DNA of 64,000 bases from an uncultured Chloroflexia bacterium (GTDB lineage: Bacteria; Chloroflexota; Dehalococcoidia; GIF9; UBA5629): NCBI GenBank assembly GCA_963752975.1, contig CAVWAG010000004.1:87660-151659 (forward strand), read 5' to 3'. The notes under the pieces were generated by a model, which saw only the letters and a program-made list of their open reading frames with translations, was not told where the DNA came from and ran no database searches. Each line of letters starts with the position of its first letter. Positions within the stretch are counted from its first letter, which is position 1. The position numbers and the translations under genes are program-made. This document shows, one piece after another, positions 13,046 through 64,000 of this stretch.

Positions 13046-13053
13046 ACGGACAT

Positions 13054-22128: not shown

Positions 22129-22137
22129 CATTACAGC

Positions 22138-24175: not shown

Positions 24176-24218
24176 TTATTCATCTCCTTTGTTATTAAAT
24201 AACCTATTTATTTGCATG

Positions 24219-25598: not shown

Positions 25599-25626
25599 TA
25601 GTTAGTCTCCGCTGTAATCCAACCGA

Positions 25627-27398: not shown

Positions 27399-27442
27399 CT
27401 TTTCCTGACCTCAATTTGATCCTGACTCGATCTGCGAGGCTG

Positions 27443-28276: not shown

Positions 28277-28287
28277 AGACTACCTCA

Positions 28288-28866: not shown

Positions 28867-28872
28867 GATACC

Positions 28873-29307: not shown

Positions 29308-29365
29308 TGCTCCTCCTTTGGCAGCGGTGCGGCTTACTGGCCGCACCGCCCTTTATCTCAATTCT

Positions 29366-31381: not shown

Positions 31382-31494
31382 ATTGTTCCTCCTTAATTGT
31401 GTTTTCTATGCATATCTGTAAAACTGATTGCTTTCTCAGATTTTGTTCAATGTGTTGATTTCAACGATTGGCATGTGCCATTCCTCTTATGACC

Positions 31495-33516: not shown

Positions 33517-33548
33517 TTTAAATCCTCCTCATAAGACTTGCATGCATA

Positions 33549-49329: not shown

Positions 49330-50691
49330 ATGAGCGAAACCGCGACTCCCGTCAAGACCGAAAAGAAGAGGGCCATCAACCGGCTTAAAAGCATGTACCC
49401 GCTGCGCAACGTCGTGCAGCAGGATTACATTGATACGCTCAAGGCCAGCAACGAGGGCAAGCCGACCGTCTGGTCGATGTTAAACTATTGGGAAGGGGAC
49501 CTTCCCCTCAAAGCCATGGGGCTGAATATCGTCTACCCGGAGAATTACGCCACCCTGCTGGCCGCTTCCGGCGCCGCCGAACCTTTCCTCGATGCTTCCG
49601 ACTCGGACGGCTTCCCCACCCACATGTGCGGCTATGGCAGGAGCACCATCGGCTATTCTTACCGCATGATGAAAGAGAACGGCGGCAAGATACCGCCCGA
49701 TGCTCCGCTGGGCGGCATGGCCAAGCCGGCCCTGCTGCTGGGCTCCGGCATCATCTGCGACGCGCGCTTCAAGTGGTTCCAGTCGCTGGCCCGCTACTTC
49801 GACGCCCCGGAATGGTGCCTCGAGATGCCGATGATGGCCACCTACGAGGGCTCCGAACCTGATTTGGAGGCCTACCAGGTGAAGTTCCTGGTAAAAGAGC
49901 TTAAGGATTTCATCGCCTTCCTGGAAAAACTTTTCAAGCGGAAAATGGACTGGGCAAAGCTGGAAGAGCTTACCGACCTGGCAGTAAAAATACACGAGAC
50001 TACCTACAAGATAAGCGAACTGCGCCAGTCGATACCCGGTCCCATGCACGCTACTGATTTCTGGAGCAGCATGCCGCCTTCCCTCTTCTTCGCCGGCGAC
50101 ATGAAGGTATCGCTAAGGTGCTACCAGGATATGCTGGACGAGGTGCAGGAGCGGGTTAATAATAAAGTATCGGGCATCAACTACCCTGAGCGCTACCGTC
50201 TCATCTTCGCCGAGCTACCGCCCTGGCATAGCCTGAAGTTCTTCGACAACCTGGCCGAGATGGGCTGGAATTTCGTCTTCGAGAGCTTCGGCTATCACGC
50301 TCCAAAGCCGCCCGACCTCAGCAAGTACAGCGACCCCTGCGAGAAGCTGGCGCGCCTCTCCCGCAATTTCATGTTCAATGTGTTCCCCGAGGCCAAGGCT
50401 GACAACATCCAGAACCCCATCGTCGAGACCTACCTCAAGATCGCCCGCGGCTTTAAAGCGGACGGCTTTTTCATGCACCCTCTAATCTCCTGCCGCGCAG
50501 CCAGTTGCAGCCTGCGCACGGTGCAGCACTGGGAACAGGAGAAATTAGACGTGCCCAGCCTCTGGGTGGAAGGGGATATCATCGACAAACGCGTCTTCAA
50601 CCCGCAGGAGGTGCTGGCCAGGGCCGAGGCTTTCGAACAGACCATGGACCACTACAGGAAGGTCAGGAAGTCCAGGGGGCTCGACTGGTAG
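49330..50691 (+). CDS. 2-hydroxyacyl-CoA dehydratase / benzoyl-CoA reductase B-type subunit family protein
   Basis: 453 aa with an HGD-D-like pattern (VWSMLNYWEGDLPLKAMGLNIVYPENY, HMCGYGRS). Confidence 0.75.
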   Translation: MSETATPVKTEKKRAINRLKSMYPLRNVVQQDYIDTLKASNEGKPTVWSMLNYWEGDLPLKAMGLNIVYPENYATLLAASGAAEPFLDASDSDGFPTHMCGYGRSTIGYSYRMMKENGGKIPPDAPLGGMAKPALLLGSGIICDARFKWFQSLARYFDAPEWCLEMPMMATYEGSEPDLEAYQVKFLVKELKDFIAFLEKLFKRKMDWAKLEELTDLAVKIHETTYKISELRQSIPGPMHATDFWSSMPPSLFFAGDMKVSLRCYQDMLDEVQERVNNKVSGINYPERYRLIFAELPPWHSLKFFDNLAEMGWNFVFESFGYHAPKPPDLSKYSDPCEKLARLSRNFMFNVFPEAKADNIQNPIVETYLKIARGFKADGFFMHPLISCRAASCSLRTVQHWEQEKLDVPSLWVEGDIIDKRVFNPQEVLARAEAFEQTMDHYRKVRKSRGLDW

Positions 50692-50716
50692 CCAATAATT
50701 AAACAGGGAGAATAAA

Positions 50717-51889
50717 ATGGTAACAGCTACGACTAAAGGGCTTTCCAGGGCACACGAGATTTACGCGGACAGAGGCAAGCGTGTGCGCGAGTTGCGCAAG
50801 GCCGGCAAGAAGATAATCGGCTACATCTGCCTCTACCCCCCGATTGAGATAATAACGGCGATGGGCATGGTGCCATTCCGCATTTTCGGCGATATGAGCG
50901 AACCGATCACAGCCGCGGACAAGGTTTCGACTACCGTGGTCTGTCCTTTCCTGCGCAGCATTATCGACCTCGGCATCAAGGGAAAATTCGATTTTCTGGA
51001 CGGCGCCGTGGGCGCGCATACCTGCGATATCGGCATGACCACCATCATTGCCTGGCGTGACTACATTAAAGACGCACCTTTCACACACCTCATCGATGTG
51101 CCCCATACCGATCATGCGCCGGCTGTTGATTACTTTGAGGGACAGATAAATTTCTTTAAACAGCATATCGAGGAATTAGCCGGGGAAAAGCTCAGCGCAG
51201 ACAAGCTTAAAAAGGCCTGTGAGTTGCATAATAAACAGCGCAAGCTGGTCAGGGATCTTTACGACCTGCGCAAATCAGATCCACCCAGGCTCAACTCGAT
51301 GGAGAACCTCGAGGTCATGGTTTCACTTTTCAGCCTGCCGGTGGAAGAGGGCAACGAACTCCTGGAAGCGGTCATCCGGGAAGTCAAAGAGCGCAGCATC
51401 AAGCCGGCCAAGAAGAAGGCCCGCCTGCTGGTGTGGGGCCCTGTTTTCGACAATACGTCACTTTACGAGCTCATAGAGAGCACCGGCGCCGACGTTGTAG
51501 TGGATGACACCTGCGTGGGCACCAGGGCCTTCTGGGCCGACGTTAAAGCCCCTTATAACCTGCATGCGCTGGCGCAGCGCTACCTGGTGGACATCAAATG
51601 CCCGCGCACCTACCGCGATACACAGCATCAAGAGACCGAACGCAGTTACGACAAGGACCTGGATAGCAGGTTCAGCTATATTAAAAAAGCCGTGACCGAC
51701 TGGCACGTTAACGGCGTCATCCTGCAGAGCGTCAAGTACTGCGACACGCACGGCTACGAGGTCCCCAACCTGAGGCATTATCTCGATACCCTGGGCATAC
51801 CCAGCATCTACATAGAGCACGACTACAGCGAGAGGTCTCTGGCCCCGATTAAAACTCGGGTGGAGGCCTTCGTGGAGACCCTGGGCTGA
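50717..51889 (+). CDS. 2-hydroxyacyl-CoA dehydratase / benzoyl-CoA reductase C-type subunit family protein
   Basis: 390 aa with GYICLYPPIEIITAMGMVPFRIFG, CPFLRS, AHTCD and KYCDTHGYE motifs. Confidence 0.75.
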   Translation: MVTATTKGLSRAHEIYADRGKRVRELRKAGKKIIGYICLYPPIEIITAMGMVPFRIFGDMSEPITAADKVSTTVVCPFLRSIIDLGIKGKFDFLDGAVGAHTCDIGMTTIIAWRDYIKDAPFTHLIDVPHTDHAPAVDYFEGQINFFKQHIEELAGEKLSADKLKKACELHNKQRKLVRDLYDLRKSDPPRLNSMENLEVMVSLFSLPVEEGNELLEAVIREVKERSIKPAKKKARLLVWGPVFDNTSLYELIESTGADVVVDDTCVGTRAFWADVKAPYNLHALAQRYLVDIKCPRTYRDTQHQETERSYDKDLDSRFSYIKKAVTDWHVNGVILQSVKYCDTHGYEVPNLRHYLDTLGIPSIYIEHDYSERSLAPIKTRVEAFVETLG

Positions 51890-51909
51890 GGTAAAACAGC
51901 AAGCCCCGC

Positions 51910-52785
51910 ATGGAAAACGCGACTCCAGCTCTTTTCTTCGCCGGCATCGATATAGGCTCCACCATGTCCAAGGCAGTCGTGGTGGACGCACAAGGCGCGA
52001 TGCGCGGCTACGTGGTCGGTCCCACCGGCGCTGAGCACCGCCGCCGCGCCAATAAGGTCATGGAGGACGTCCTTCTCAAGGCAGGGATCACGCTCGACCA
52101 GGTCGCCTACATCATCTCCACCGGCTACGGCCGCGTCAACGTCCCCTTCGCCGATAAGCAGGTCACCGAGCTTACCTGCCACGCCAGAGGGGTAGCCTCC
52201 CTTTTCCCCGATGTGCGAACTGCAATAGACATCGGCGGCCAGGACGCCAAGGTACTCAAGATTAAGAGTGGCAGGCTGACCGACTTCCTCACCAACGATA
52301 AGTGCGCCGCCGGCACGGGCAGGTTCCTGGAGGTGGCAGCGGAGACGCTGGGACTGGAGCTCAACGAGATGGGGCGGATATCACTGCAGAGCGACACGCC
52401 CGTCAAGATAAACAGCCTGTGCACTATCTTCGCCCAGCAGGAGATAATCTCCCGCCTTTCCGAGGGACAGCCTTTGACGGATATACTGGCCGGCGTTTAC
52501 ATCGCCGTAACCACGCGCGTGGTCAAGCTGGCCAGGCAACTCAAGGTAGAGCCGCCCGTGGTCTTCACCGGCGGAGTGGCCAAAAACTCGGGCATGGTCA
52601 AAGCTATGGAGACCGTACTGGGCATGCCCGTCTTGGTCCCGGAAGAGCCTCTCATCACCGGCGCACTGGGCGCCGCCATACTGGCGCGTGACGAGGCTTT
52701 TAAGCTGGTGCAGGACGGCGATTTTAAGATGGCGAAAAAACAGCTCAGCGAAGCTTATATAGAATTCATGGAGAAAGGCCGGTGA
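51910..52785 (+). CDS. BcrA/BadF/HgdC-type ATPase (acyl-CoA reductase/dehydratase activating subunit), copy 1
   Basis: 291 aa with AGIDIGSTMSKAVVVD, DIGGQDAKV, NDKCAAGTGRFLE and SLCTIFAQQE motifs (two cluster Cys). Confidence 0.8.
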   Translation: MENATPALFFAGIDIGSTMSKAVVVDAQGAMRGYVVGPTGAEHRRRANKVMEDVLLKAGITLDQVAYIISTGYGRVNVPFADKQVTELTCHARGVASLFPDVRTAIDIGGQDAKVLKIKSGRLTDFLTNDKCAAGTGRFLEVAAETLGLELNEMGRISLQSDTPVKINSLCTIFAQQEIISRLSEGQPLTDILAGVYIAVTTRVVKLARQLKVEPPVVFTGGVAKNSGMVKAMETVLGMPVLVPEEPLITGALGAAILARDEAFKLVQDGDFKMAKKQLSEAYIEFMEKGR

Positions 52786-53555
52786 CCAACTATTTCCTCG
52801 GTATCGACATCGGCGCGGCAGCCAGCAAGGCCGTAATCATCGACGGCCAAAAGAAGATCATGGGTGCGGGTGTGATACCCTCGGGCACCAACTACGCCAC
52901 CACCGCCGCGGCGGTAAAGGCCGAGGCTTTAAAACAGGCCGGACTTCAACTCGCTGATATCACCTTCAGCGCCGCCACCGGCATCGGCGGGCGCAACGCC
53001 GGCGCCGATAGCTATCATGGCGTGATAATCTGCGACGCCCGAGGCGTGAACCTCACCTTCCCCGGCGTGCGCACTATCATAGATATAGGAGGCCAGGGCA
53101 GCCAGGTCATCACCATGGACGAAAACGGGCGGGTCATCAACTTCAACGTCTCCGAGATATGCGCCACCGGCAGCGCGCGGCTGCTACAGGTCGTGGCCCG
53201 CATATTGCAGATAAGCATCGACGAGATCGGTCCGCTATCCCTAAAAGCCACTAAACCTTCCAGCTTCTCCACCTCCTGCACCGTTTTCCTTGAAACCGAG
53301 GTCATCACACGCATCTCGCAGGGCGATAGCCCCGAGGATATCCTGGCCGGCATCCACCGCTCGATCGCCGATAAGATAAGCGGCATGTCTCGCGGCGTAG
53401 CCCTTGAGAAAGATTTCGCGGTCATCGGCGGCGGCGCGCTCGACATCGGCCTGGTGCAGGCCATCGATGAGAAGCTCGGCATAAAAACCCTCGTACCCGA
53501 AAACCCCCGGCTTATGGCTGCGCTGGGCGCCGCGGTTATCGCCGCTGAGCATTAG
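52782..53555 (+). CDS. BcrD/BadG/HgdC-type ATPase, copy 2
   Basis: 257 aa. The GTG start overlaps the upstream TGA (GTGA). Motifs LGIDIGAAASKAVIID, DIGGQGSQV, SEICATGSARLLQ and TSCTVFLETE. Confidence 0.8.
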   Translation: MTNYFLGIDIGAAASKAVIIDGQKKIMGAGVIPSGTNYATTAAAVKAEALKQAGLQLADITFSAATGIGGRNAGADSYHGVIICDARGVNLTFPGVRTIIDIGGQGSQVITMDENGRVINFNVSEICATGSARLLQVVARILQISIDEIGPLSLKATKPSSFSTSCTVFLETEVITRISQGDSPEDILAGIHRSIADKISGMSRGVALEKDFAVIGGGALDIGLVQAIDEKLGIKTLVPENPRLMAALGAAVIAAEH

Positions 53556-53605
53556 TCCATTATTGGGAGGCTATATTGCTAAAATACCAGAACGGAGGCA
53601 ACGAG

Positions 53606-54628
53606 ATGGAGAAAGCAGAAAGCGCCTGGATAACCGGGGCAAATAAAACGGTCTACCAACCCGGTCAAACAACCGGCCACTACGAAAGTTTTTTCCTGCG
53701 GGCCAACCACCCGTCGCTTCCCCTGGCTTTCTGGATACGGTATACCATCTTCAGCCCGCAGGGCCACCCCGAAAAAGCTATCGGTGAACTGTGGGCGGTC
53801 TATTTCGACGGTCAAAACGTGCTGGATTTTGCCGTTAAGAAAGAGGTGCCTTTCAACCAGTGCTCTTTCAGTTCATCCGGGCTGGATGCAAAGATCGGTG
53901 ATGCCCTGCTAAATACAGGCAAGCTGACTGGAGACGCCTCGGCCCATAACCACGAAATTAAGTGGGATTTGACCTATAGCGGTGATAGCAAACCCCTTTT
54001 CCTGCTGCCACTGAAAATGTATTCAGCTGGCTTTCCCAAAGCTAAAAGCATCGTACCCCTTCCCATGGCTCAATTCAACGGTAGTCTCATCGTGGACGGT
54101 AAAACTGTAAACATAGATAAATGGATCGGCAGCCAGAACCATAACTGGGGCTCCAGGCACACCGATCTCTACGCCTGGGGACAGGTGGCCGGCTTCGACA
54201 ACAACCCGGACAGCTTCCTCGAGGTCGCCACGGCCAGGGTTAAAATCGGTCCCTTTTGGACGCCAAACATGACCCCTGTCGTGCTGCGGCATAAAGGCAA
54301 GGAATATGCCCTTAACAGCATGGCCCAAACCTTGAAAGCCCACGGGCACTTCACTTATTTTGACTGGCAATTCTCCTCGGAGAACGACGTGGTTAGTCTT
54401 GCAGGAATGATAACCGGCGATCGCAACCAGTTCGTGGGACTGAATTATTACAACCCGCCGGGAGGCAACAAGCACTGCCTCAATAGCAAGATAGCCTCCT
54501 GTGACCTGAGGATCACCTACAAGCAGGGCGCAAATAAGGGCTCATCCGACCTGCTGACCACCCGCAACCGCGCAGCCTTTGAGATCCTCACTGATAAAAG
54601 GGACCACGGCATCACCATCCAGGTGTAA
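53606..54628 (+). CDS. hypothetical protein (beta-rich; no family recognised)
   Basis: The ATG at 53606 follows GGAGG. 340 aa. Only a vague resemblance to CrtC/AttH/tocopherol-cyclase-like proteins (GHYESFFLRANHP). Confidence 0.5.
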   Translation: MEKAESAWITGANKTVYQPGQTTGHYESFFLRANHPSLPLAFWIRYTIFSPQGHPEKAIGELWAVYFDGQNVLDFAVKKEVPFNQCSFSSSGLDAKIGDALLNTGKLTGDASAHNHEIKWDLTYSGDSKPLFLLPLKMYSAGFPKAKSIVPLPMAQFNGSLIVDGKTVNIDKWIGSQNHNWGSRHTDLYAWGQVAGFDNNPDSFLEVATARVKIGPFWTPNMTPVVLRHKGKEYALNSMAQTLKAHGHFTYFDWQFSSENDVVSLAGMITGDRNQFVGLNYYNPPGGNKHCLNSKIASCDLRITYKQGANKGSSDLLTTRNRAAFEILTDKRDHGITIQV

Positions 54629-54811
54629 GCACCAAATTGCTTACTGAAAAGGCAATTTGCTGCGCAGAGTAACGGCACTTTTTCATAAAATGATCCTCCT
54701 TTAAGTATATCAATCATCCCACGAAACTAACATCTATCTGGTCCAGTTTTCGGAGCGCAGATCAATTTCCTTGGCCCATAACATTTCAATGAGCCCATTT
54801 CAATAGGCTAA

Positions 54812-54840
54812 TTTGACTTCCGACCAATTCCCCAATATTA
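54812..54840 (+). promoter_or_regulatory. candidate promoter TTGACT-17 nt-TATTAT for arsR
   Basis: TTGACT at 54812-54817 and TATTAT at 54835-54840, about 40 nt upstream of the arsR ATG. Confidence 0.45.
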
Positions 54841-54880
54841 TATTACTACATGCGGATAAACGAATAGAGACAGGTGACAT

Positions 54881-55258
54881 ATGAGGAAATTAGCTAAAAC
54901 ATTTAAGGCATTGTCTGACGAGACCAGACTGAGGATCTTAAACATACTGCTGGAACGTGAGTGCTGTGTCTGTGAGTTAATGCAGGTACTGGATTTAACG
55001 CAATCCAGAACATCACGGCATTTGATCACACTTTGCGATGCGGGCTTTTTAAAGTTCAGGCGTCAGGGCTTGTGGGCCATGTATTCCATCGACTGGGAGA
55101 GTATGGATAAATATCATATTGATTTGGCCGGAATTGTGCGTGAAGCTCTGAAAGATAATCAGACGGCGATTTTTGACAGGCAGAAACTGGCCACTACGGA
55201 AAAGATTGGACTGACAGTCTGCTCAGCTACCGGTAGTAAAAATGGCTGCAACAACTAA
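54881..55258 (+). CDS. arsR: ArsR/SmtB family metalloregulator
   Basis: 125 aa with LSDETRLRILNILLERECCVCELMQVLDLTQSRTSRHL (wHTH with a CVC metalloid-binding motif). Confidence 0.9.
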   Translation: MRKLAKTFKALSDETRLRILNILLERECCVCELMQVLDLTQSRTSRHLITLCDAGFLKFRRQGLWAMYSIDWESMDKYHIDLAGIVREALKDNQTAIFDRQKLATTEKIGLTVCSATGSKNGCNN

Positions 55259-56339
55259 AGTGGAATCCTGCATTTGCGGCATATCAACTCCCCCAAGTGC
55301 TGCACCTAACGGAAAAACCCTTGATAACAGGAAGCTTTATCTGCTGCTGGGCATAGGTCTGGCCTTATGGCTGATCGTATATTATTGGCTTGAAACGGCG
55401 TCCAATTTCCTGACTTTTAACATATTTCATCTGTCTGCGGATAGCCATTTGGGCAGCAGCGTGGCTTTCTTTCTGTACGATGCACCTAAAGTCATCATGC
55501 TCCTGGCAATAATAGTATTCGGCGTCGGAATAATACGCTCATTCTTCACACCGGAGCGGACCAGGCAGATGCTGGCGGGCAAACGTGAATTCGTCGGTAA
55601 CGTTATGGCTGGCGGACTTGGCATTGTCACGCCTTTCTGTTCATGCTCCGCCGTTCCGCTTTTCATTGGATTTGTGGAGACCGGCGTTCCTCTCGGCGTC
55701 ACGTTCACTTTTCTGATCGCAGCGCCGATGATCAACGAGGTGGCCCTCGTCCTCCTCTTCAGCATGTTCGGCTGGAAAATAGCTCTGCTCTACGTGGCAA
55801 CTGGACTATTCATCGCCATCACCGCCGGCTGGGTAATTGGCCGCCTTAAGCTGGAGAGATACATTGAGAGCTGGGTGCATGAAATAAAGATGGGCGAGTC
55901 CGGCGATGCGGCGGGAGACCTTAAATTTGCAGATCGAATTCGGTATGGCCTAACTGCGGTGAAGGAGATCGTAGGTAAAGTCTGGCCCTACGTCCTTGCT
56001 GGAATAGCCGTAGGAGCGATCATACACGGATATGTACCCGAAGGCCTGATGGCGTCATTTATGGGCAAGGACGTCTGGTGGGCAGTCCCTGCGGCCGTGC
56101 TGCTTGGTGTCCCCATGTATTCCAATGCGGCAGGGTTCATTCCAATAATGCAAGCGCTCATGGAGAAGGGCGCAGCCCTGGGCACGACGCTTGCCTTTAT
56201 GATGGCGGTCATAGGCCTATCTCTGCCGGAAACGATAATACTGCGAAAAGTGCTGAAATGGCAGCTCATCGCTGTATTCCTCGGGGTTGTATCCGTCGGC
56301 ATAATCATAATTGGCTATCTTTTTAATGCCATACTCTGA
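55242..56339 (+). CDS. arsP: DUF318-type permease, ArsP-like organoarsenical efflux permease
   Basis: 365 aa, multi-TM. The TPFCSCSAVPLF motif is, as I recall, characteristic of ArsP. Adjacent to arsR. The start is uncertain (overlaps the arsR end). Confidence 0.75.
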   Translation: MAATTKVESCICGISTPPSAAPNGKTLDNRKLYLLLGIGLALWLIVYYWLETASNFLTFNIFHLSADSHLGSSVAFFLYDAPKVIMLLAIIVFGVGIIRSFFTPERTRQMLAGKREFVGNVMAGGLGIVTPFCSCSAVPLFIGFVETGVPLGVTFTFLIAAPMINEVALVLLFSMFGWKIALLYVATGLFIAITAGWVIGRLKLERYIESWVHEIKMGESGDAAGDLKFADRIRYGLTAVKEIVGKVWPYVLAGIAVGAIIHGYVPEGLMASFMGKDVWWAVPAAVLLGVPMYSNAAGFIPIMQALMEKGAALGTTLAFMMAVIGLSLPETIILRKVLKWQLIAVFLGVVSVGIIIIGYLFNAIL

Positions 56340-56365
56340 CATTGCAGCATTTAGCGAACAGATAC

Positions 56366-56609
56366 ATGGATAAACTGATGGGCATTATGAAGGCACTATC
56401 CGATGAAACAGAGGCAACAGGGTAGATTCTCAGTTTATGCGATAGATTGGAAGAGATTTGACTCATGCGGGGCCGACATGCTGAAGGCCATACGCAGGGG
56501 ACTCGAAGGAAACAAGCTGGCTAAGGAAGACTTACGTAAACTGGCCCAGGCCGGGAGCGCCCTGCCTGATGCACACACAAAGCATAAATCTAATTTTATG
56601 GAAAGGTAA
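56366..56609 (+). pseudogene. arsR remnant lacking the HTH/metal-binding core
   Basis: The N-terminal piece MDKLMGIMKALSDET is joined (out of frame by 1) to RQQGRFSVYAIDWKRFD..., matching intact ArsR residues MKALSDETR and RRQGLWAMYSIDWESMD. About 45 codons between them are missing. Confidence 0.65.
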
Positions 56610-56616
56610 TGAACAG

Positions 56617-57096
56617 ATGAAAACTATTATCTTGATGATGACAACGTGTCTTTTGGTACTTTCGACTATGTTGCTGGGTGGGTGCGCAGGTACGCAGCCA
56701 GATTTGCAAACTTCAAAAGCTGACAATGCTGTTACTGACACGGCTAAACCGGACAGTGTCGAACTCATCTATTTTCACACGAAAGTAGCTTGCCATTGCA
56801 TGTCAACTGTGCAAGATAATATCAAGTACGCTGTCGATACATATTTTGCAAATGAAACAGCTACAGGTAAAGTAAAATTGACCATGATTGTCTCGGACGA
56901 TCCGGCGAATGAAGAGCTCGTCAAAAGATATGATGCCCTGCCTTTCGTTCTTTTCATCAAGGAAACACGGGGAAATAAGGCAAGGACCTATCCGGTTAGC
57001 GATATCTGGAATATGACAGGGGACGATAACCGGGACAAGCTGATCAATTTTATCAAGGTGACTGTCACCGACATATTGGATGGGAAGACCTCATAA
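56617..57096 (+). CDS. ArsF-like lipoprotein, divergent copy (CxC instead of CxxC)
   Basis: Lipobox [35 protein letters not shown] aligns with IDVIYFHANQRCVTCLCFEKSINKVIDTYF of the copies at 58601 and 59321. Confidence 0.6.
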
Positions 57097-57139
57097 AAGC
57101 TATGCCGATACAAAAATACAATCAAATGGGGGATTGCAA

Positions 57140-58222
57140 ATGAAGGACGCAGGCCAGTCTTGTACCAGCGAGCAAGGCAGTTTAAAGCTGTCGGTCCTGG
57201 ACCGTTTTCTGACGCTCTGGATTTTCCTGGCAATGGCGTTAGGCGTGGGACTGGGCTACTTCATACCGGGGGTAGCCGATGTCATATCTCTGTTTCAGGT
57301 TGGGACAACATCCATCCCCATTGCGGTAGGACTGATCCTGATGATGTATCCGCCGCTGGCCAAGGTCAAATACGAGGAATTGCCGCTGGTCTTTCGCGAC
57401 TGGAAAATACTCGGACTGTCCTTGGTGCAAAACTGGGTGATCGGGCCGATACTGATGTTCTTGCTGGCAATACTCTTGCTGAGCGGATACCCGGACTATA
57501 TGGTTGGGCTAATTATGATAGGACTGGCGCGCTGCATAGCCATGGTTATTGTATGGAATGAGCTTTGCGGGGGAGATAATGAATATGCCGCGGGCTTGGT
57601 GGCCTTCAACTCGATTTTCCAAATTTTATTTTACTCGGTTTATGCCTACATTTTTATCACTATCCTTCCAGGGTGGTTTGGACTCAAGGGAGTGTCTGTA
57701 AATATAACTATCTGGCAGATAGCGCAGAGCGTTTTGATCTACCTGGGAATACCGTTTTTCGCTGGGATGCTTACAAGATTTGCTTTACTTAAGGCAAAGG
57801 GAAGGAAGTGGTACGACACGAAGTTCATTCCCAAGATCAGTCCTATTACGCTGGCGGCGCTGCTGTTTACAATCGTTGTGATGTTCTCCTTGAAAGGGCA
57901 GATCATCGTCCAACTGCCACTGGATGTGCTGCGCATCGCCTTGCCGCTTCTTATCTATTTTGTGGTTATGTTCCTAGTGTCTTTCTATATGGGGAAGAAG
58001 ATAGGAGCAAACTACCAAAAGACGGCTACGATCGCCTTCACGGCCGCCAGCAACAACTTTGAATTAGCGATAGCTGTCGCCGTGGCTGTATTCGGTATTG
58101 GGTCCGGACAGGCATTTGCCGCTGTTATAGGTCCGCTGGTAGAAGTGCCAGTTTTAATTGGTTTGGTCAACGTATCCCTGTATTTTAAGCGCAAGTTTTT
58201 CGATCGAGCCCTAACCATATAA
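57140..58222 (+). CDS. acr3: ACR3 family arsenite efflux transporter
   Basis: 360 aa from the ATG at 57140. Motifs [26 protein letters not shown] and [13 protein letters not shown] (conserved ACR3 Cys motif). Confidence 0.9.
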
Positions 58223-58239
58223 AGTAATGGAGGTTAACA

Positions 58240-58506
58240 ATGAACATTAAATTATTAGGTCCCGGCTGCGCCAAATGCCAGAACCTGGAAAAAGCAGTGA
58301 AAGAGGTAGTAGCCGCCTTAAAGCTAGACATCAGCGTTGAAGATGTAAGAGACATGAAAAAAATCATGCAGTATCCGATTTTGGCGACACCCGGCCTCGT
58401 AATCAATGAAAAACTCGTAATGAGCGGAAAAGTGCCGTCAAAAGCCGAGGTCGAACAATTAATTATGAATGCCCTGGCTGCTGAGGACAGGGAGAAAAAC
58501 AAATGA
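58240..58506 (+). CDS. small thioredoxin-fold protein (redox-active disulfide protein 2 / TM0996-MTH895 type)
   Basis: 88 aa with MNIKLLGPGCAKCQNLE (CxxC) and ATPGLVINEKLV. GGAGG RBS. Confidence 0.8.
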   Translation: MNIKLLGPGCAKCQNLEKAVKEVVAALKLDISVEDVRDMKKIMQYPILATPGLVINEKLVMSGKVPSKAEVEQLIMNALAAEDREKNK

Positions 58507-58600
58507 TTAGGTCGAGCGGCGCGGAGCAGATTGCGTGTGCAAGAAAAAACGGTAATTAATTCACAATTTATTCACACGAAATTCACATTTCGCTCATAAA

Positions 58601-59248
58601 ATGGACACTACTATGAAAGAAGAAATTGGAACGATCATCTCCAGAGGAGGCACGGAAATTAATACTGTCTTCACCGTTAAGAACCTGGTGATATCTTTTG
58701 TCTATGCGGGACTAATTATGCTGTCTGCGTGCGCAAGCGCGCCCGCTGCACCGGTTGTACAGGCGGATCAGCCGGCCAAACAACCGGCTGCGGCTCAGCC
58801 TCAGGCACCTGCAAATCAGTCACCGGCTCAGCAAGACCCCATAGTGGGGGACGAGAACTCAAGCAATGACAATGCTACTGGAACGAAGACCCCGGCGGCC
58901 CCGGTTAGCAGGATTGATGTCATTTATTTTCATGCAAATCAGCGATGCGTAACATGTCTTTGTTTTGAGAAGAGTATTAACAAAGTCATTGATACATATT
59001 TTTCGGATGAGTTAAATAGCGGGAAATTGACTTATCAGGTGTTAAATCTGCAGCAACCTGAGAATGCGGATATTACTAAGAAATATCAGGCAGTTGGCTC
59101 GCAATTGTTTGTCAACGTGATAATCAAGGGTGTTGACAATATCCAGGACATCCAGAGCATATGGAATTGGAAATGTGTCAATGACCCACATGGCTTTGAG
59201 TTAAAAGTTAAGAATGTTATTCAGGGAGGGCTCAAGCAGCTATCCTGA
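58601..59248 (+). CDS. ArsF-like lipoprotein (nitrophenyl-arsenical nitroreductase subunit ArsF family, as I recall the family name)
   Basis: Lipobox LSAC, a Q/P/A-rich linker, then IDVIYFHANQRCVTCLCFEK...KYQAVGSQLFV. The start codon is uncertain (no clear RBS at 58601). Confidence 0.6.
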   Translation: MDTTMKEEIGTIISRGGTEINTVFTVKNLVISFVYAGLIMLSACASAPAAPVVQADQPAKQPAAAQPQAPANQSPAQQDPIVGDENSSNDNATGTKTPAAPVSRIDVIYFHANQRCVTCLCFEKSINKVIDTYFSDELNSGKLTYQVLNLQQPENADITKKYQAVGSQLFVNVIIKGVDNIQDIQSIWNWKCVNDPHGFELKVKNVIQGGLKQLS

Positions 59249-59320
59249 TGTGGCCGTCAGGTTTATTAATTGGGCGTATATAATCGAATACCGTCCCTTA
59301 AAGGAGGACCACTAAATTTG

Positions 59321-59941
59321 ATGTTCACTAAGATGAAGAATTTCATTTATCTGCCGGTAATAGCAGGGGTCATTGCATTGACAGCGTGCTCAGCGATAAC
59401 TGCTTCTCCACAGCAACCGCCCGTTGAAACACCCGTGCAAACTTCTACTAAGCAGTCTTCCCAGCCGCCGGCGCAATCAAGTACTTTGACGGCTATACAG
59501 CCGAGTGTCCAACCTGTAGCGCAGACACCTGCACAACAAAATTCCGGCTCAGGCTCCATATCGACTACAAACATAGTCACTTCGCCGCCCTTATTGTCCA
59601 ACAGGATTGATGTCGTATATTTCCATGCGAACCTTAGATGTGTGACATGCCTGTGTTTTGAAAAAGAGGTCACTAATATCATAAAAACATATTTTCAAGA
59701 CGCCATAAACAGCGGCAAGCTTACATACAGGGTATTAAATATCCAGGAACCGCAGAATGCTGTCATAGTCAAGAAATACGGCGCCCTCGGATCACAGCTA
59801 TTTATTAATAATGTCATAAACAATTTCGACAATATTGAAGATATTCAAGATATATGGTCCTGGAACTGCGTTGATGATCCCTCCGGCTTTAATGCAAAGG
59901 TGAAGGACGTAATCGAACTCAGACTCAATGGGCAAAGATAA
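59321..59941 (+). CDS. ArsF-like lipoprotein, third copy
   Basis: The ATG at 59321 follows AAAGGAGG. Lipobox LTAC, a Q/P/S-rich linker, then IDVVYFHANLRCVTCLCFEK...KYGALGSQLFI. Confidence 0.6.
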   Translation: MFTKMKNFIYLPVIAGVIALTACSAITASPQQPPVETPVQTSTKQSSQPPAQSSTLTAIQPSVQPVAQTPAQQNSGSGSISTTNIVTSPPLLSNRIDVVYFHANLRCVTCLCFEKEVTNIIKTYFQDAINSGKLTYRVLNIQEPQNAVIVKKYGALGSQLFINNVINNFDNIEDIQDIWSWNCVDDPSGFNAKVKDVIELRLNGQR

Positions 59942-60663
59942 TGGACTTATCGTCTTTAACGTCAAATATAAACATACCTGTGCTATCGGCATTTTTTTTA
60001 GGGCTGATGGCTACCGTCGGGCCGTGTACCATGGCAACCAATATCGCGGCCCTCGCCTATGTAGGCCGAAACCTGACGGACCGTAAATATTCTGTGGTGA
60101 CAGCGGCCCTATATACGCTGGGCCGGATGTTGACCTATACGGTACTGGGCGCACTTATTATTTACCTCGGACTCAGTATCCCGGGAGTGTCTGTAATCCT
60201 GCAGGATGTAGGGGAAAAAGCCCTCGGGCCATTCTTGATAGCAATAGGCGTGTTGATGCTTTTCATAGATAAGATATCTTTCGGTCGCAGCGGCAATAGT
60301 TTATCCAATCTCGGCGGAAAGGTCGCCGACTGGGGTATGATCGGGGGACTTCCACTTGGCGCACTCTTCGCCCTGGCATTCTGCCCATACAGCGCCGTCC
60401 TGTTTTTTGCCGTATTGCTTCCGCTGGCGTTGAAAACCGCCGGCGGTGTGACGTTACCGGCCTTTTTTGCTATTGGGACGGGGTTGCCGGTTTTGCTTTT
60501 CGGTCTACTGCTCTCATTTGGCGTGGCCAGTATCTCGAAGTGGGTTGATGCAATCGGCCGCAGCGAAAAAGTTATCCGTATCGTAATCGCTATTGCCTTC
60601 ATCGTTATCGGGATTTATTACATGATACCCTGGCTAACCAGCCTATTCGTATCAGGCCAATAA
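59941..60663 (+). CDS. ArsG-like / CcdA-DsbD-like integral membrane protein
   Basis: 240 aa with about 6 TM segments and Cys in TM segments (TVGPCTMATN, ALAFCPYSAV), as in CcdA-type thiol-disulfide transporters. The start overlaps the upstream stop (TAATG). Confidence 0.6.
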   Translation: MDLSSLTSNINIPVLSAFFLGLMATVGPCTMATNIAALAYVGRNLTDRKYSVVTAALYTLGRMLTYTVLGALIIYLGLSIPGVSVILQDVGEKALGPFLIAIGVLMLFIDKISFGRSGNSLSNLGGKVADWGMIGGLPLGALFALAFCPYSAVLFFAVLLPLALKTAGGVTLPAFFAIGTGLPVLLFGLLLSFGVASISKWVDAIGRSEKVIRIVIAIAFIVIGIYYMIPWLTSLFVSGQ

Positions 60664-60725
60664 TTTGGAGTGACATGCTTTGAACGGCAATTAGTGATTA
60701 ATAACAGCGATTTATAAAGGAATGA

Positions 60726-61160
60726 GTGAAAATGTCATTTAACAAATTTATGCGGCTATCCGGCAAGGTCCTATTTCTTGTATTGGCTGTGTTCTTGGTA
60801 TTCAACATAAGTTGCTCCGGTGGAACGGACACATATATTGAGAAAGACCTTACAAAAATATCGCTTGATCAGGCTTTACGTAACGGAAAACCCACCCTTG
60901 CAGATTTCGGTTGGAGGAACTGCATTCCATGCAAAATGATGAAACCTGTACTCGAAACGCTGGCAGAGAAGCAACGGGGACAACTTAACGTTTTAATTGT
61001 GGAGGTTTACGAGCATGAGGACCTTACGGACCAGTATGGAATAAAGTCCATCCCAACCCAGATATTATTTGACAGCCAGGGAAAAGAGCTAATGCGTCAC
61101 CTGGGATACTGGGCACCGGAGGAAATGGCGCCGGAACTGAAAAAAATCGGGGTAAATTGA
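60726..61160 (+). CDS. thioredoxin-family lipoprotein (extracytoplasmic, CIPC active site)
   Basis: Signal peptide with lipobox NISC, then FGWRNCIPCKMMKP (WxxCxxC) and IKSIPTQILF (cis-Pro loop). The start is either the GTG at 60726 or the ATG at 60732. Confidence 0.8.
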   Translation: MKMSFNKFMRLSGKVLFLVLAVFLVFNISCSGGTDTYIEKDLTKISLDQALRNGKPTLADFGWRNCIPCKMMKPVLETLAEKQRGQLNVLIVEVYEHEDLTDQYGIKSIPTQILFDSQGKELMRHLGYWAPEEMAPELKKIGVN

Positions 61161-61184
61161 GAATTCCGAAAAAGGAGATACACT

Positions 61185-61621
61185 ATGGCTGAAGAACAAC
61201 AGTGGCAGGCAGGAATAAACACCCACGAAAACGCGATTTTTTCCTGTTTCGGTGGAGCGTCGAATACAGGAATAACCAGTGGGTTGGCCTGTTTGGAGGC
61301 AGTTAAAGAACTTGGCTTGCAGAAGGCGGCCATCATGTGCCTGGGGGGATTGCCAACCTATGTGAAACCGGTATTAGGAAAAACCAGAGCGGCAAAAAGA
61401 TTATCACCGTGGATGGCTGCCCCTTTGAATGCAGCCGGAAGATAGTTGAACAGGCAGGATTCAAGCCGATCAGTATTGTACTTACACGGGATATCGGTAT
61501 GAAAAAGAAGGGGCTCAGCGAGGACATTGGCAGGGAGATCAAAGGGGTCATGGAATATATTTCCGACGGCGAGGTAAAGAAGGCTACAGAACTGATCGTA
61601 AGTACTATTATGAATGAGTAG
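61185..61621 (+). pseudogene. DGC-domain putative zinc-binding protein (ArsE-like), frameshifted at a G6 run (61343-61348)
   Basis: The ORFs 61185-61445 and 61337-61621 overlap. Adding one G joins ...AIMCLGG to IANLCETG...KKIITVDGCPFECSRK (DGC motif). Confidence 0.65.
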
Positions 61622-61658
61622 CTATAGATAAATAAAAATTAAAAAAGGAGGAACAACA

Positions 61659-62258
61659 ATGAATATGGTACCTGAATGGGCGTGGGAGTTTCACGGACAC
61701 AAGTGTCCCTTCATGCCGCTGGGCTATCGCATGGGCAAGCTGGCCATGAAGGAATTAGGGGCTGGGCACGAGCCAGACCACGGGTTTTTCGTCATACCGG
61801 AGCTGGGTATCGGGCATCCGCAGACATGCTTGATGGATGGCATCCAGATAGCTACCGGCGCCACCTACGGCAAGTCATTGATGGAAAAGACATTCTGGGG
61901 AAAGTTGGCTGCTGTGTTTTATCATCCGCAGTATCTCGGAAAGGGTGCAATCCGCCTATACGTTACTAATGAGTTTCAAGATGAGTTCGGCAAACATGAA
62001 TTTTTCGCCTACAGAAAAAAGAAAGTTGAACCTTCAAAGATTCCGGCCGACGTCGCCAAGGCAGCCATAGACTGGGTATATGCCCAGCCGGACGATAAGG
62101 TCTTTAAGATCGATTGGGTACCTGACTATAAATTTGCGCCCGCCAGGGGATCATTCAACAAGGTGAAATGCGTTAAATGCGGTGAATACGTTTTCGAGCG
62201 GTACGTACGCCTGGTCGACAATGAGCCTAACTGCATACCCTGCTCAGGTTACAAATAA
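61659..62258 (+). CDS. FmdE-family protein with a C-terminal zinc ribbon
   Basis: 199 aa with the EFHGHKCPFMPLGYRMG motif and C-terminal CVKCGE...CIPC. Confidence 0.75.
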   Translation: MNMVPEWAWEFHGHKCPFMPLGYRMGKLAMKELGAGHEPDHGFFVIPELGIGHPQTCLMDGIQIATGATYGKSLMEKTFWGKLAAVFYHPQYLGKGAIRLYVTNEFQDEFGKHEFFAYRKKKVEPSKIPADVAKAAIDWVYAQPDDKVFKIDWVPDYKFAPARGSFNKVKCVKCGEYVFERYVRLVDNEPNCIPCSGYK

Positions 62259-62314
62259 AATAATCCGTCGCTTTGCCAACGGAACCGGGGATTGTTGCCC
62301 CCGAGGATAATTAA

Positions 62315-63115
62315 ATGTCTATAATAACTGCAATTATAGCCTGTGTTGCTGTGCTCGTACTTGCCGTGCCATTCTCAATGGTGGGTCAGGGTGGAGGGTC
62401 AACTTATGTGCCTATCTTGCTAATGACAGGCATGGGAATGCATGAGTCTTCCACCACTAGCCTATTCATGATCATGCTGGCGAGCATAGCATCGACCCTG
62501 GTTTTTGGCCGCAAGAAGACAGTAGACTGGAAACTATTATTTGCCATTGTTCCCTTCGCCATTGTCGGTTCTTTCGCCGGCGGCTATGTCGCTCAATGGG
62601 TCAGCTCCATAGCACTGAAAATTATCTTTATCGCGGTGCTTGGAGTTGCTGCATTCTTCATGCTTCGCCCGGCTACGGAGGGCAAGCGTCCGGACTTTAT
62701 GCCGGCCTGGTATTGCTGGGACAGGACCTGCGGGGAACATCAATACCAAATAGCAATGGGGGTTCTTATCCCGGCAACCACCCTGGTCGGATTTATTTCA
62801 GGGCTGATAGGGGTTGGTGGGGGTTTATTTCTTCTGCCAATGCTGATGCTGTTATTCGGCTGTCCGACGCGCGTCGCTATAGGCATTTCCTCTACATACG
62901 TTGGCATCACTGCGCTGCCTGGCTTTCTCGGGCATTTGATGGGTGGCGACCCTTTTAACGTATGGATAGCCTTGCCCTTATCGGCAGCAGCGTTTATCGG
63001 AGCAAGCCTGGGTCCGATTATATCACTCAGGACCGGAGTGCCAAGGCTACGAATAATACTGGCCGTAGTGCTTGTTGCCCTTGCGGCCTGGATGATCCTT
63101 AAATTATTTATTTAA
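62315..63115 (+). CDS. TauE/SafE family sulfite-exporter-like membrane protein
   Basis: 266 aa with about 8 TM segments and a duplicated G-G-G motif (MVGQGGGSTYVP; LIGVGGGLFLLP). Confidence 0.75.
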   Translation: MSIITAIIACVAVLVLAVPFSMVGQGGGSTYVPILLMTGMGMHESSTTSLFMIMLASIASTLVFGRKKTVDWKLLFAIVPFAIVGSFAGGYVAQWVSSIALKIIFIAVLGVAAFFMLRPATEGKRPDFMPAWYCWDRTCGEHQYQIAMGVLIPATTLVGFISGLIGVGGGLFLLPMLMLLFGCPTRVAIGISSTYVGITALPGFLGHLMGGDPFNVWIALPLSAAAFIGASLGPIISLRTGVPRLRIILAVVLVALAAWMILKLFI

Positions 63116-63175: not shown

Positions 63176-63868
63176 TTGGTTATTAATCTGAAGAAGTACA
63201 TTATTGCACCAGTAATCGCCTTATTAATTACATCCTGCACCGGTCCCACCTTTACGACTTTGAAACCGAACAGTAATCCTACAATTGAAACCATATCATA
63301 TGCCAAGGATAGTATGGCTGTAGCGGATAACGAGATAGTGTGCTATGCGAGTGATCCAGATGGCGACAATTTGATATATGCATGGTCTGCGGACGGTGGG
63401 CAAATAACGCCAACAGGTCCAAATGCGCTTTGGATTTCGCCTGGCGTTATGGGAAATTACATGGTTTCTGTAACAGTTAAAGATGGAAAAGGTGGGGAGA
63501 GCGATCGAGACTGTAACATACGTGTGCTGAATAATGCGGATGGGACTACAGCGATGCCGATCATTCTGAAGATGCGCATGCCTTCCGAAGATATTGTCTC
63601 GGAGAATACAACAGTCAAGGTCGGGACAATGACGAAAGTAAGTTGTGCGATAGAAAATTCGGCAGGTAAGAAAATCAGCTATTCATGGGCGGCAACAGGG
63701 GGCAAAATAAAAGGCAAAGGACTGGAGGATGGAACGTGCACATTTGTGTACTGGACGGCCCCGCCCGAGGTCAGGATATATGACTTGTCGATTACTGCCA
63801 GGGACGCCGACGGCAATGAGGCACAGGGCAAGGTATCCTTCGATATTTTCTGTTGCCCCAGAAATTGA
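63176..63868 (+). CDS. putative lipoprotein with two Ig/PKD-like repeats
   Basis: Lipobox ITSC. Repeated D.DGD.L.Y.W.A.GG.I motifs. TTG start, uncertain. Confidence 0.5.
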   Translation: MVINLKKYIIAPVIALLITSCTGPTFTTLKPNSNPTIETISYAKDSMAVADNEIVCYASDPDGDNLIYAWSADGGQITPTGPNALWISPGVMGNYMVSVTVKDGKGGESDRDCNIRVLNNADGTTAMPIILKMRMPSEDIVSENTTVKVGTMTKVSCAIENSAGKKISYSWAATGGKIKGKGLEDGTCTFVYWTAPPEVRIYDLSITARDADGNEAQGKVSFDIFCCPRN

Positions 63869-63889: not shown

Positions 63890-64000
63890 ATGATCAAGAA
63901 ATTTGTAGGGGTAATCATCTGCCTTATTTTTCTGCCCGTGGCCGCATTAAACCTGTCGGGATGCGCAGAAATTCAAGGCAAAGGGGAAATCATCAAGGAT
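63890..64000 (+). CDS. putative lipoprotein, N-terminal fragment (runs off the window)
   Basis: MIKKFVGVIICLIFLPVAALNLSGCAEIQGK... has a signal peptide plus lipobox LSGC and is open to the window end. Not in the supplied track. Confidence 0.5.
   Translation, partial: MIKKFVGVIICLIFLPVAALNLSGCAEIQGKGEIIKD

Follow-up and report, generated by a model that had tools for sequence, protein, structure and literature searches.

The stretch of DNA analysed here (the window) comprises 64 kb of contig CAVWAG010000004.1, from assembly GCA_963752975.1 of an uncultured Chloroflexia bacterium, and carries an unbroken row of co-directional genes on the plus strand between 54.8 and 64.0 kb. This row is probably a horizontally acquired, ArsR-controlled arsenic-resistance (ars) island of an uncultured, Dehalococcoidia-like member of the Chloroflexota. 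It would consist of three modules and combine a thiol–disulfide relay of ArsE, ArsG and ArsF with a pair formed by an FmdE-like zinc protein and a TauE/SafE transporter. The island deserves attention for two reasons, namely the comparative case for FmdE–TauE as an undescribed ars-linked module and the evidence for a disulfide relay made of ArsE, ArsG and ArsF. All positions are those of the whole 64-kb window, gene identities come from NCBIfam and Pfam models (Table 1), and L-numbers (L001, L007, L090, etc.) label related loci from genomes, metagenome contigs and plasmids.

An initial annotation, made by reading the letters of the window, had described a composite ars island with an expanded arsEFG-like set and listed twelve genes. 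The family models bear out this description: all twelve genes were found, co-directional on the plus strand and in the order claimed, and each is backed by a model. The hidden Markov model annotation (NCBIfam, Pfam) that had been proposed as a check agrees with the gene identities, and in the synteny comparison, proposed at the same time, modules and gene order recur, shuffled, in relatives. In the arrangement put forward here, module 1 would be arsR–arsP, with a repressor carrying a CCVC thiolate site and a permease of the organoarsenical-exporter family with a Cys-x-Cys motif. Module 2 would be a decayed second operon made of an arsR remnant, arsF1 and acr3, in which Acr3 would export arsenite. 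Module 3 would run arsE–arsF2–arsF3–arsG–trx–DGC–fmdE–tauE, followed by the genes of PKD lipoproteins, and its FmdE–TauE pair would have been recruited into ars operons.

A relative of FmdE was found in 459 species genomes in a scan of one genome per species. Neighbourhoods were counted within ±10 kb in the best 80 of these 459 genomes, searched with the window proteins and with the ArsC, ArsM, ArsD and ArsA of locus L002. The families encountered most often in the 80 loci were TauE (52), ArsR (47), ArsE (45), Acr3 (35), ArsP (29) and ArsC (20), followed by the thioredoxin lipoprotein (19), ArsG (13), DGC (13), ArsF (12), ArsD (11) and ArsA (11). TauE lies no more than 300 nt from FmdE in at least 48 loci, 31 times in the order FmdE–TauE and 17 times as TauE–FmdE, and in at least two apparent exceptions a divergent TauE-like gene adjoins FmdE. 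Among the 42 loci with at least 8 kb of sequence on each side, 26 have Acr3, ArsC, ArsA, ArsD or ArsM, and 38 hold some ars-cluster family. Recurrent units are arsR–fmdE–tauE(–arsC–acr3) in Dehalococcoidales and Micrarchaeota and arsR–arsE–arsP–tauE–fmdE in Anaerolineae; the ArsR proteins encoded beside FmdE–TauE carry CxC motifs in helix α3 such as ECCVCE, GEKCACE, GEACVCH and EELCLCD. The reciprocal test, a metagenome scan centred on the TauE of the window, returned 56 loci, 43 of them with at least 700 nt of upstream sequence; FmdE stands directly upstream of TauE in 42 of these 43, and ArsC–Acr3 often comes next. FmdE–TauE is a fixed two-gene unit and, in the subfamily of the window, a regular part of ArsR-controlled ars operons in both domains of life. 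That arsF is multiplied and that the FmdE and TauE genes lie outside the described ArsEFG system, as had been proposed from the sequence, proved correct; the multiplication of arsF and the linkage of FmdE–TauE both recur in many relatives and are not peculiar to the window.

Several observations weigh against the interpretation of the island given above. The survey of 80 genome loci takes in just the nearest relatives of the query FmdE, and four of the 42 well-flanked FmdE loci have no ars gene. An FmdE gene of 37.5% identity, directly followed by a TauE/SafE gene, lies on the Citrobacter freundii IncHI2A plasmid p112298-catA (L146, 6983–8356), where no ars neighbour is listed, and an FmdE match of the L146 type occurs in 21 of 23 matching conjugative plasmid records from Citrobacter, Klebsiella, Kosakonia and Enterobacter. 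Cd, Zn and Cu systems, too, make use of ArsR/SmtB regulators and ArsP_1 permeases. The published reading of ArsEFG, as it appears in a citation in PMC9144182 and in the NCBIfam names, is nitro-group reduction by ArsE/F and efflux by ArsG. Finally, with one dead arsR and a frameshift in the DGC gene, decay may be under way in part of the island. Given the Citrobacter plasmid pair, the pairing of FmdE with TauE is older and wider than its use in ars operons, and because of this pair and the four loci without ars genes, it is not intrinsically tied to arsenic. Homologous clusters without arsenic genes had been named at the outset as a sign of another function; such loci do exist, in the proportion of four to 38 that hold an ars-cluster family. 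As a separate observation, a second TauE gene and a LysR gene are located 2–3 kb upstream of the FmdE–TauE pair in L146.

These points could be taken to describe a general soft-metal or thiol-redox locus directed at Cd, Zn, Cu, Hg or sulfide stress, with Acr3 as a passenger and FmdE–TauE acting on a metal or on sulfite. The helix α3 CxC sites of ArsR/SmtB proteins also sense Cd, Pb and Zn, and a few FmdE–TauE pairs stand without ars neighbours. Moreover, the relatives of ArsP_1 include the SO_0444 Cu/Zn exporters and SaoE (bioRxiv 10.1101/2022.07.06.499078), and most members of the FmdE family adjoin metal-ion transporters, only 13 of 208 adjoining fmd genes (PMC2954224). The recurring partners are nevertheless arsenic-specific, i.e., Acr3 in 35 of 80 loci, ArsC of the low-molecular-weight phosphatase (LMWP) type directly after TauE, ArsD/ArsA and ArsM, and the Pfam-annotated neighbours checked included no determinant for Cd, Zn, Cu or Hg such as a P-type ATPase, CDF or Mer. 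We therefore consider a general soft-metal locus very unlikely.

For FmdE itself, clustering at 90% gives over 1000 relatives. Each of the best 120 shares at least 63% identity with it, and their sources are Chloroflexota, Bathyarchaeia, Micrarchaeota, KSB1, Aminicenantales and further groups; among representatives at 50% identity, one full-length, high-scoring match is listed (302 bits), and most other top matches are fragments or more distant. In an alignment of 17 diverse members, with a mean column identity of 70%, H12, H14, C16, H41, H53, C57 and D60 are invariant, as are C171, C174, C192 and C195 of the zinc ribbon. Among solved structures, the nearest is Ta1109 from Thermoplasma acidophilum (PDB 2GVI, E 2e-49), with whose zinc ligands H12, H14, C16, C57 and the four ribbon cysteines align. 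In 2GVI, a His2Cys2 zinc lies at the bottom of a solvent-exposed groove and a second zinc in a treble-clef finger (PMC2954224). The window protein is thus predicted to be a cytoplasmic zinc protein with a His2Cys2 site and a C-terminal four-Cys treble-clef finger. Genes for fmd/fwd catalytic subunits were found neither in 150 related loci nor among those upstream genes of the window that were annotated. Since its neighbours are ars genes and TauE, with no fmd/fwd, the protein should not be named formylmethanofuran dehydrogenase subunit E.

In the 62 loci whose FmdE is less than 70% identical to that of the window, mean identity to the window copies is 65.5% for FmdE, 61.7% for Acr3, 54.6% for ArsP, 41.6% for ArsE and 31.0% for TauE. 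FmdE is the most conserved gene of these clusters, at about 65% between Chloroflexota, Proteobacteria and Archaea, with TauE at about 30%. This conservation bears on the proposal that FmdE is a zinc-finger regulator or protein-interaction factor that regulates TauE. The C-terminal treble-clef finger speaks for such a role, and transcriptional regulation or protein–protein interaction was suggested on this ground by the JCSG authors (PMC2954224). FmdE–TauE modules, however, nearly always come with an ArsR of their own, and the His2Cys2 ligands, together with many of the residues around them, do not vary between bacteria and archaea, at an overall identity of about 65%. An invariant, solvent-exposed site with invariant surroundings is more typical of catalysis or ligand binding, and a purely regulatory FmdE appears most improbable. 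Apart from this, loci of Anaerolineae and related genomes (L030, L035, L067, L075, L076, L082, L084 and L086) hold, in tandem with the conserved copy, one or two extra, distant FmdE paralogues of 29–35% identity.

TauE has no conserved cysteine, and only H207 and D71 are widely conserved. The TSUP/TauE family transports sulfite and sulfonates. Taken together, these features make an anionic arsonate or thioarsenate a likelier substrate of TauE than thiol-bound As(III). FmdE, as a chaperone or an enzyme, would bind or convert an arsenic species, and TauE would export an anion that is not handled by Acr3 or ArsP; pentavalent arsonates, as analogues of sulfonates, and thioarsenates are the candidate substrates. 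That the pair handles an arsenic species at all is suggested by its genomic company. No paper linking FmdE, TauE or DGC proteins to arsenic resistance was found in the literature searched. A preprint on the SAO system (Haft, bioRxiv 10.1101/2022.07.06.499078) mentions the ArsP family and not FmdE, TauE or DGC; the remaining matches were incidental, one being a plasmid-borne TauE of Listeria and the other an Acidiplasma FmdE gene that, in transcriptomics, is down-regulated alike on sulfur, pyrite and arsenopyrite. FmdE–TauE is therefore a good candidate for a new ars determinant. If it is indeed an ars pair, the FmdE family would gain its first functional context outside methanogenesis.

The second line of evidence concerns ArsE, ArsF and ArsG. 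What had been described as a small thioredoxin-fold protein does have that fold, and its identity can now be given as ArsE itself, so that the arsE–arsF–arsG set is complete. The genes follow straight after acr3 in the order arsE–arsF2–arsF3–arsG, downstream of arsR. The CxxC of ArsE (Cys10, Cys13) is kept in 65–66 of 69 homologues; ArsE, DGC and FmdE have no hydrophobic segment, and ArsE, without a signal peptide, is predicted to be cytoplasmic. Three ArsF-like lipoproteins had been proposed: copies 2 and 3 score above the cut-off of the family model, while copy 1 falls just under it and is best called ArsF-like. The likely start of arsF1 is at 56617 (MKTIILMM...LLGGC). ArsF1 has CHC in place of CxxC, shares 22% identity with ArsF2 in the domain and is orthologous to the first-set ArsF of L009 and L090. 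ArsF2 and ArsF3 are paralogues with 62% identity in the conserved domain, and several arsF copies are common in the lineage (L094, L099, L137, L142).

At the N-terminus of ArsF1–3 and of the thioredoxin lipoprotein, a single hydrophobic segment precedes a lipobox cysteine. In ArsF2, a Pro/Gln-rich linker leads to a thioredoxin-fold domain with the motif CVTCLC; the corresponding motif of Bacteroidota ArsF is RCxTC. The AlphaFold model of the ArsF2 domain (36 sequences) has a mean predicted local distance difference test (pLDDT) score of 96.3 and the order strand–helix–helix–strand–helix–strand–strand–helix–helix. Its best PDB matches in Foldseek are all thioredoxins or protein disulfide isomerase domains, and the first helix begins with C-V-T-C-L-C, in the place of the thioredoxin CxxC. 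ArsG contains exactly two cysteines, Cys29 right after the hydrophobic segment 10–28 and Cys148 inside the segment 142–160, kept in 21 of 22 and 22 of 22 homologues, respectively; by its PF13386 match it is a membrane protein of the DsbD superfamily, with one conserved cysteine in or at each of two predicted transmembrane segments. The CxxC of the thioredoxin lipoprotein is kept in 24 of 24 homologues. Thus, both a putative cytoplasmic thioredoxin-like donor and putative extracytoplasmic acceptors with thioredoxin-fold CxxC sites are present. Comparable ArsR–Trx–ArsF–ArsG–permease blocks occur on Bacteroidota plasmids, one of them adjoining ArsC and Acr3.

For these proteins, we infer a CcdA/DsbD-type thiol–disulfide relay as a better-supported account than a nitroreductase with a permease. 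Cytoplasmic ArsE would reduce, through its CxxC, the two membrane cysteines of ArsG, which in turn would keep reduced the CxxC(xC) sites carried by four thioredoxin-fold lipoproteins at the outer face of the membrane. Once reduced, these sites could act on extracellular arsenicals by binding or reducing them. Both the direction of electron flow and the substrates are proposals here. The alternative is the Shewanella-type assignment, in which ArsE and ArsF act on roxarsone or nitarsone by reducing the nitro group, ArsG exports the aminophenyl arsenical and the island acts chiefly against aromatic arsenical drugs. It draws on the ArsEFG-named NCBIfam models, which ArsG, ArsE, ArsF2 and ArsF3 match above cut-off, and on a passage of PMC9144182 that describes ArsG as an efflux transporter and credits ArsE/F with organoarsenical resistance, citing Chen, Zhang and Rosen 2019 (Environ Sci Technol 53:6182). 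Yet no flavin or nitroreductase domain is present, and ArsF is an extracytoplasmic lipoprotein while ArsE is cytoplasmic, so the two cannot form one soluble enzyme. In addition, the DsbD_2 match and the two conserved cysteines of ArsG are typical of CcdA-type electron carriers, and for hosts that are uncultured anaerobes of sediment, groundwater and sludge, synthetic feed additives are no obvious selective agent. This assignment is accordingly judged unlikely. The organoarsenical label that had been attached to the island goes back to the published names of ArsEFG and ArsP; sequence and fold of ArsE, ArsG and ArsF indicate a thiol–disulfide relay. Should the relay be correct, thousands of genome annotations ("nitroreductase subunit", "efflux permease") would have to be read differently. 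Elsewhere, in L002 (13848–15155), a 195-residue secreted protein without cysteines is encoded after an ArsR gene and before a third DsbD_2 gene. It aligns poorly with ArsF (19% identity) and may represent another family of acceptors that serves an ArsG-like protein.

In anoxic sediments, aquifers and paddy soils, arsenic occurs largely in thiolated and methylated forms, and to our knowledge the microbial genes directed against such species are poorly known. A more far-reaching idea, possible in our view but on the doubtful side, is that FmdE–TauE is a new, widespread arsenic-detoxification determinant of anaerobes in Bacteria and Archaea, acting on species for which no resistance gene is known (thioarsenates, methylated or aromatic arsonates in anoxic settings), and that ArsE/G/F is at the same time a membrane-spanning disulfide relay arming extracellular CxxCxC arsenic-binding lipoproteins.

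The ArsR with a CVC motif (ERECCVCE) noticed in the initial annotation was confirmed; its family match and the Cys cluster of helix α3 mark it as a predicted As(III)-type metalloregulator, and the CCVC motif also occurs in orthologues that adjoin FmdE modules. The start of arsP overlaps the Cys-containing C-terminal end of arsR. The ArsP-like permease, first recognised by a PFCSCS motif, holds up likewise and probably belongs to the organoarsenical-exporter family, to judge by PF03773 and its membrane Cys pair; ArsP forms the Organo-Arsenical Exporter family of TCDB, as cited in bioRxiv 10.1101/2022.07.06.499078. Cys133 and Cys135 are kept in 34 of 35 homologues, and an extra CxC in the N-terminal cytoplasmic part (Cys10, Cys12) is found in only 7–8 of the 35. 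Against NCBIfam, the best matches of ArsP are SaoE and SO_0444, far below their cut-offs, with no equivalog model. The ACR3 assignment is at equivalog level. A promoter-like sequence, TTGACT-17-TATTAT (54813..54841, plus strand), lies about 40 nt 5′ of arsR and agrees with 10 of 12 consensus positions. The number of promoter-like sites in the region is at chance level, as is the outcome of the terminator scan, so that it is the position of this candidate that is suggestive. No ArsR operator-like inverted repeat was found 5′ of arsR; the sole inverted repeat upstream, of 12 nt at 54629–54663, follows the stop of the gene for a 350-residue protein and is a possible terminator.

Between arsP and arsF1 lies the deleted arsR remnant that had been proposed from the sequence. 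It consists of the N-terminus MDKLMGIMKALSDETE, a stop and then, in the next frame, RFSVYAIDW...LEGNKLAKEDLRKLAQA, i.e., the first 16 and roughly the last 55 ArsR residues, the C-terminal part containing YAIDW...EDLRKLAQA. About 44 codons are missing, among them those of the helix-turn-helix and of the CCVC site. The intact proteins nearest to the remnant are the ArsRs of L141, L007, L009 and L011 (40–52% identity), which head arsE-F-G-acr3 or arsP operons; identity to the intact ArsR of the window is 36%, which marks the remnant as a second arsR lineage. In L090, a homologue of the intact arsR of the window with its promoter region is followed directly by arsF1–acr3, with arsP further downstream; the remnant would therefore mark the junction of two operons. 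This order and the distinct lineage of the remnant support the operon fusion put forward earlier, in which an arsR–arsP unit was joined to an arsR–arsF1–acr3 unit whose arsR then decayed.

Further rearrangements are seen across the lineage. In L007, L009 and L038, arsP is divergent from an arsR–arsE–arsF–arsG–(arsC)–acr3 operon. The 58.6–62.9 kb block (arsF2–arsF3–arsG–trx–DGC–fmdE–tauE) is collinear with metagenome contigs L137 and L142 at 84–85% DNA identity and with L008 at 91%, save for a PKD gene inserted in L008. The architecture arsE–F–F–G–trx–DGC–fmdE–tauE recurs in close relatives, and the arsE–F–G block is found inside ArsR-linked clusters also in L007, L008, L137, L142 and Bacteroidota plasmids. 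From the differing arrangements in L090, L007, L009, L038, L137, L142 and L008, it follows that modules have been shuffled among close relatives.

The DGC gene had been called frameshifted, and its frame (61185–61621) is indeed broken, with PF08859 matching the second half only; the lesion amounts to one missing base in the A-run 61394–61398. Intact 145-residue orthologues in L007, L008 and L011 have one more base at this run, and Cys21, Cys52, Cys79 and Cys83 are conserved. A frameshift in the G-run 61343–61348 was considered and ruled out by alignment with the same three orthologues. Related assemblies, including long-read metagenome-assembled genomes (MAGs), show similar split genes (L001 versus L002). 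Given this and the position in an A-run, the frameshift may equally well be a homopolymer sequencing error or a real mutation. DGC proteins look like one more recurrent, uncharacterised ars-linked family. In the Bathyarchaeia loci L005/L006, the segment 5037–8810, upstream of and divergent from fmdE–tauE, holds acr3, a glycine-cleavage-H-like gene, two DGC-domain genes, OsmC and XdhC; on the downstream side are DsrE/TusA and heterodisulfide-reductase-like genes.

The dead arsR copy and the broken DGC gene, together with the loss of arsE and arsG from the arsF1–acr3 unit relative to its counterparts, could indicate that the island is a decaying, largely non-functional relic. Against this stand the other thirteen genes, which are intact, tightly packed and conserved in their key residues, and the fact that the sole frameshift lies in a homopolymer, with similar split genes in related long-read assemblies. 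A relic in this sense has little probability. Uncultured Chloroflexota harbour a recurrent family of ars islands, of which the present one is a typical, if somewhat decayed, example and no singular construct.

Table 1. Features of the island (window positions) with the family models and motifs behind each assignment.
Feature	Position	Strand	Basis
arsR, ArsR/SmtB repressor	54881–55258	+	NF033788 88.8 bits (cut-off 55); PF01022; motif ERECCVCE, helix α3
arsP-type permease (ArsP_1/DUF318)	55242–56339	+	PF03773 235.8 bits, 7.9e-70; FCSCS
arsR remnant, pseudogene	56366–56609	+	alignment with intact ArsR of relatives
arsF1, divergent ArsF-like lipoprotein	open reading frame (ORF) 56569–57096	+	NF040494 55.9 bits (cut-off 60)
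acr3, arsenite efflux permease	57080–58222	+	TIGR00832 equivalog 457.9 bits (cut-off 282.8)
arsE, MTH895/ArsE-family thioredoxin-like	58240–58506	+	TIGR00412 98.7 bits (cut-off 62)
arsF2 lipoprotein	58601–59248	+	NF040494 91.1 bits (cut-off 60); lipobox MLSAC
arsF3 lipoprotein	59270–59941	+	NF040494 83.6 bits (cut-off 60); lipobox ALTAC
arsG, CcdA/DsbD_2-type membrane protein	59941–60663	+	NF040495 equivalog 250.4 bits (cut-off 200); PF13386 77.6 bits
extracytoplasmic thioredoxin lipoprotein	60726–61160	+	PF00085; CxxC = Cys66, Cys69
DGC-domain gene, two frames	61185–61445 + 61337–61621	+	PF08859 39.4 bits, second half only
FmdE-like zinc protein with C-terminal zinc ribbon	61659–62258	+	PF02663 86 bits (cut-off 22.9)
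TauE/SafE (TSUP) transporter	62315–63115	+	PF01925 148.1 bits (cut-off 32.6), full length
PKD/Ig-domain lipoprotein	63176–63868	+	PF00801 (PKD) 35.7 bits; also after tauE in close relatives
further lipoprotein gene start (MIKKFVGVIICLIFLPVAALNLSGC...)	63890–64000	+	cut by window end

The island had been thought to end at 63115; the row extends at least to 63868, the end of the PKD lipoprotein gene, and its downstream boundary lies beyond the window, where the lipoprotein gene from 63890 runs off position 64000. Homologues of arsC, arsM, arsA and arsD were absent from the whole 64-kb window. The earlier statement that arsC, arsM and arsA are lacking thus holds for the window and does not carry over to the island as a whole, since the window stops inside it and the closest relatives carry arsD–arsA(–arsC) just there, after the PKD gene. 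The GC content of the island is 0.472, against 0.529 in the rest of the window, where the lowest value for a 9.2-kb stretch is 0.503, and the GC content at third codon positions (GC3) is reduced in every island gene; this composition points to horizontal acquisition from a foreign source. The nearest genome, with an FmdE of 93% identity, is the MAG "uncultured Chloroflexia bacterium MFD01476.bin.c.5", and the other close matches are Chloroflexota and Dehalococcoidia MAGs. Directly upstream, at 49330–53555, two HGD-D (2-hydroxyacyl-CoA dehydratase D-component-like) genes are followed by two BcrAD/BadFG activase ATPase genes, with GC3 values of 0.71–0.80, much above those of the island. By its gene families, this is a predicted radical dehydratase or benzoyl-CoA-reductase-like cluster with two activators. 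Between it and the island lies the gene for the 350-residue protein (53576–54628), which has sub-threshold matches only (Rv3169 family, 28 bits; tocopherol cyclase, 18 bits).

Other parts of the window hold features of their own. At 20734–34847, three paralogues starting with MANVPKKVA(V/I)IG(F/L)DCA (22553–24175, 29366–31381 and 31495–33516), the first of which matches type I phosphodiesterase/nucleotide pyrophosphatase, are interleaved with genes for two major facilitator superfamily (MFS) transporters, an alkyl-sulfatase-like metallo-β-lactamase (25627–27303), and DUF169 and TetR-like proteins; the region may be a sulfate- or phosphate-ester catabolic cluster. Two paralogues of about 460 residues (24219–25598 and 43101–44516), with N-termini of the form ...EEKIKDFA(R/K)KAG..LVG(I/V)AG...DGP.SLDP, each share their neighbourhood with a DUF169 gene (27443–28276 and 46012–46491); the protein of 24219–25598, the one of the two that was scanned, has no Pfam match. 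The product of 47098–49203 is a large signalling protein, cytoplasmic, that combines four PAS domains with a GGDEF diguanylate cyclase domain. The ORFs at 982–1824 and 13263–14129, which have GC3 of 0.41–0.42 and one of which encodes a DUF3800 protein, fall into low-GC patches (0.418 in the 1-kb bins 1001–2000 and 13001–14000) that may be foreign insertions.

Among known systems, ArsEFG of Shewanella putrefaciens 200 shares with the island the TIGR00412, NF040494 and NF040495 families, encoded by adjacent genes in an ArsR-controlled ars cluster. The window differs in its three ArsF copies, one of them divergent with a CxC, in the additional thioredoxin lipoprotein, DGC, FmdE, TauE and PKD genes and in its host, a Chloroflexota MAG; moreover, sequence and fold indicate a thiol–disulfide relay here and not a nitroreductase with a permease. 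With the CcdA–ResA/CcmG and DsbD pathways, the island has in common a cytoplasmic donor, a membrane protein with two cysteines and extracytoplasmic CxxC acceptors. Unlike in those pathways, no cytochrome c maturation genes lie nearby, the genes are ArsR-controlled and adjoin Acr3, and the acceptors, ArsF proteins with a third cysteine (CxxCxC), are a family of their own.

The FmdE family, represented by Ta1109 (2GVI) and the FmdE of methanogen fmd operons (PMC2954224), has the same two-domain architecture and all the zinc ligands. The window protein stands apart through its ars context, its TauE partner and the lack of formylmethanofuran dehydrogenase genes near it; the motif GHPQxC is invariant in its subfamily and absent from Ta1109, and the Syntrophus "tungsten FmdE" structure 3D00 gives a marginal match (E 0.0056). 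TauE resembles the TauE/SafE (TSUP) sulfite and sulfonate transporters in its full-length PF01925 match, but it has no sulfonate-degradation genes nearby and is paired with FmdE in ars clusters. ArsP shares the PF03773 family and the membrane Cys-x-Cys with the ArsP of Campylobacter jejuni, which mediates methylarsenite efflux, and differs from it by the extra N-terminal CxC. Finally, the island resembles the canonical arsR–arsC–acr3 and arsRDABC operons in its ArsR with thiolate sites and its Acr3, to which relatives add LMWP ArsC, ArsD/ArsA and ArsM. It departs from them in having no arsC, arsA, arsD or arsM in the window and in consisting, to about two thirds, of genes outside the classical set.

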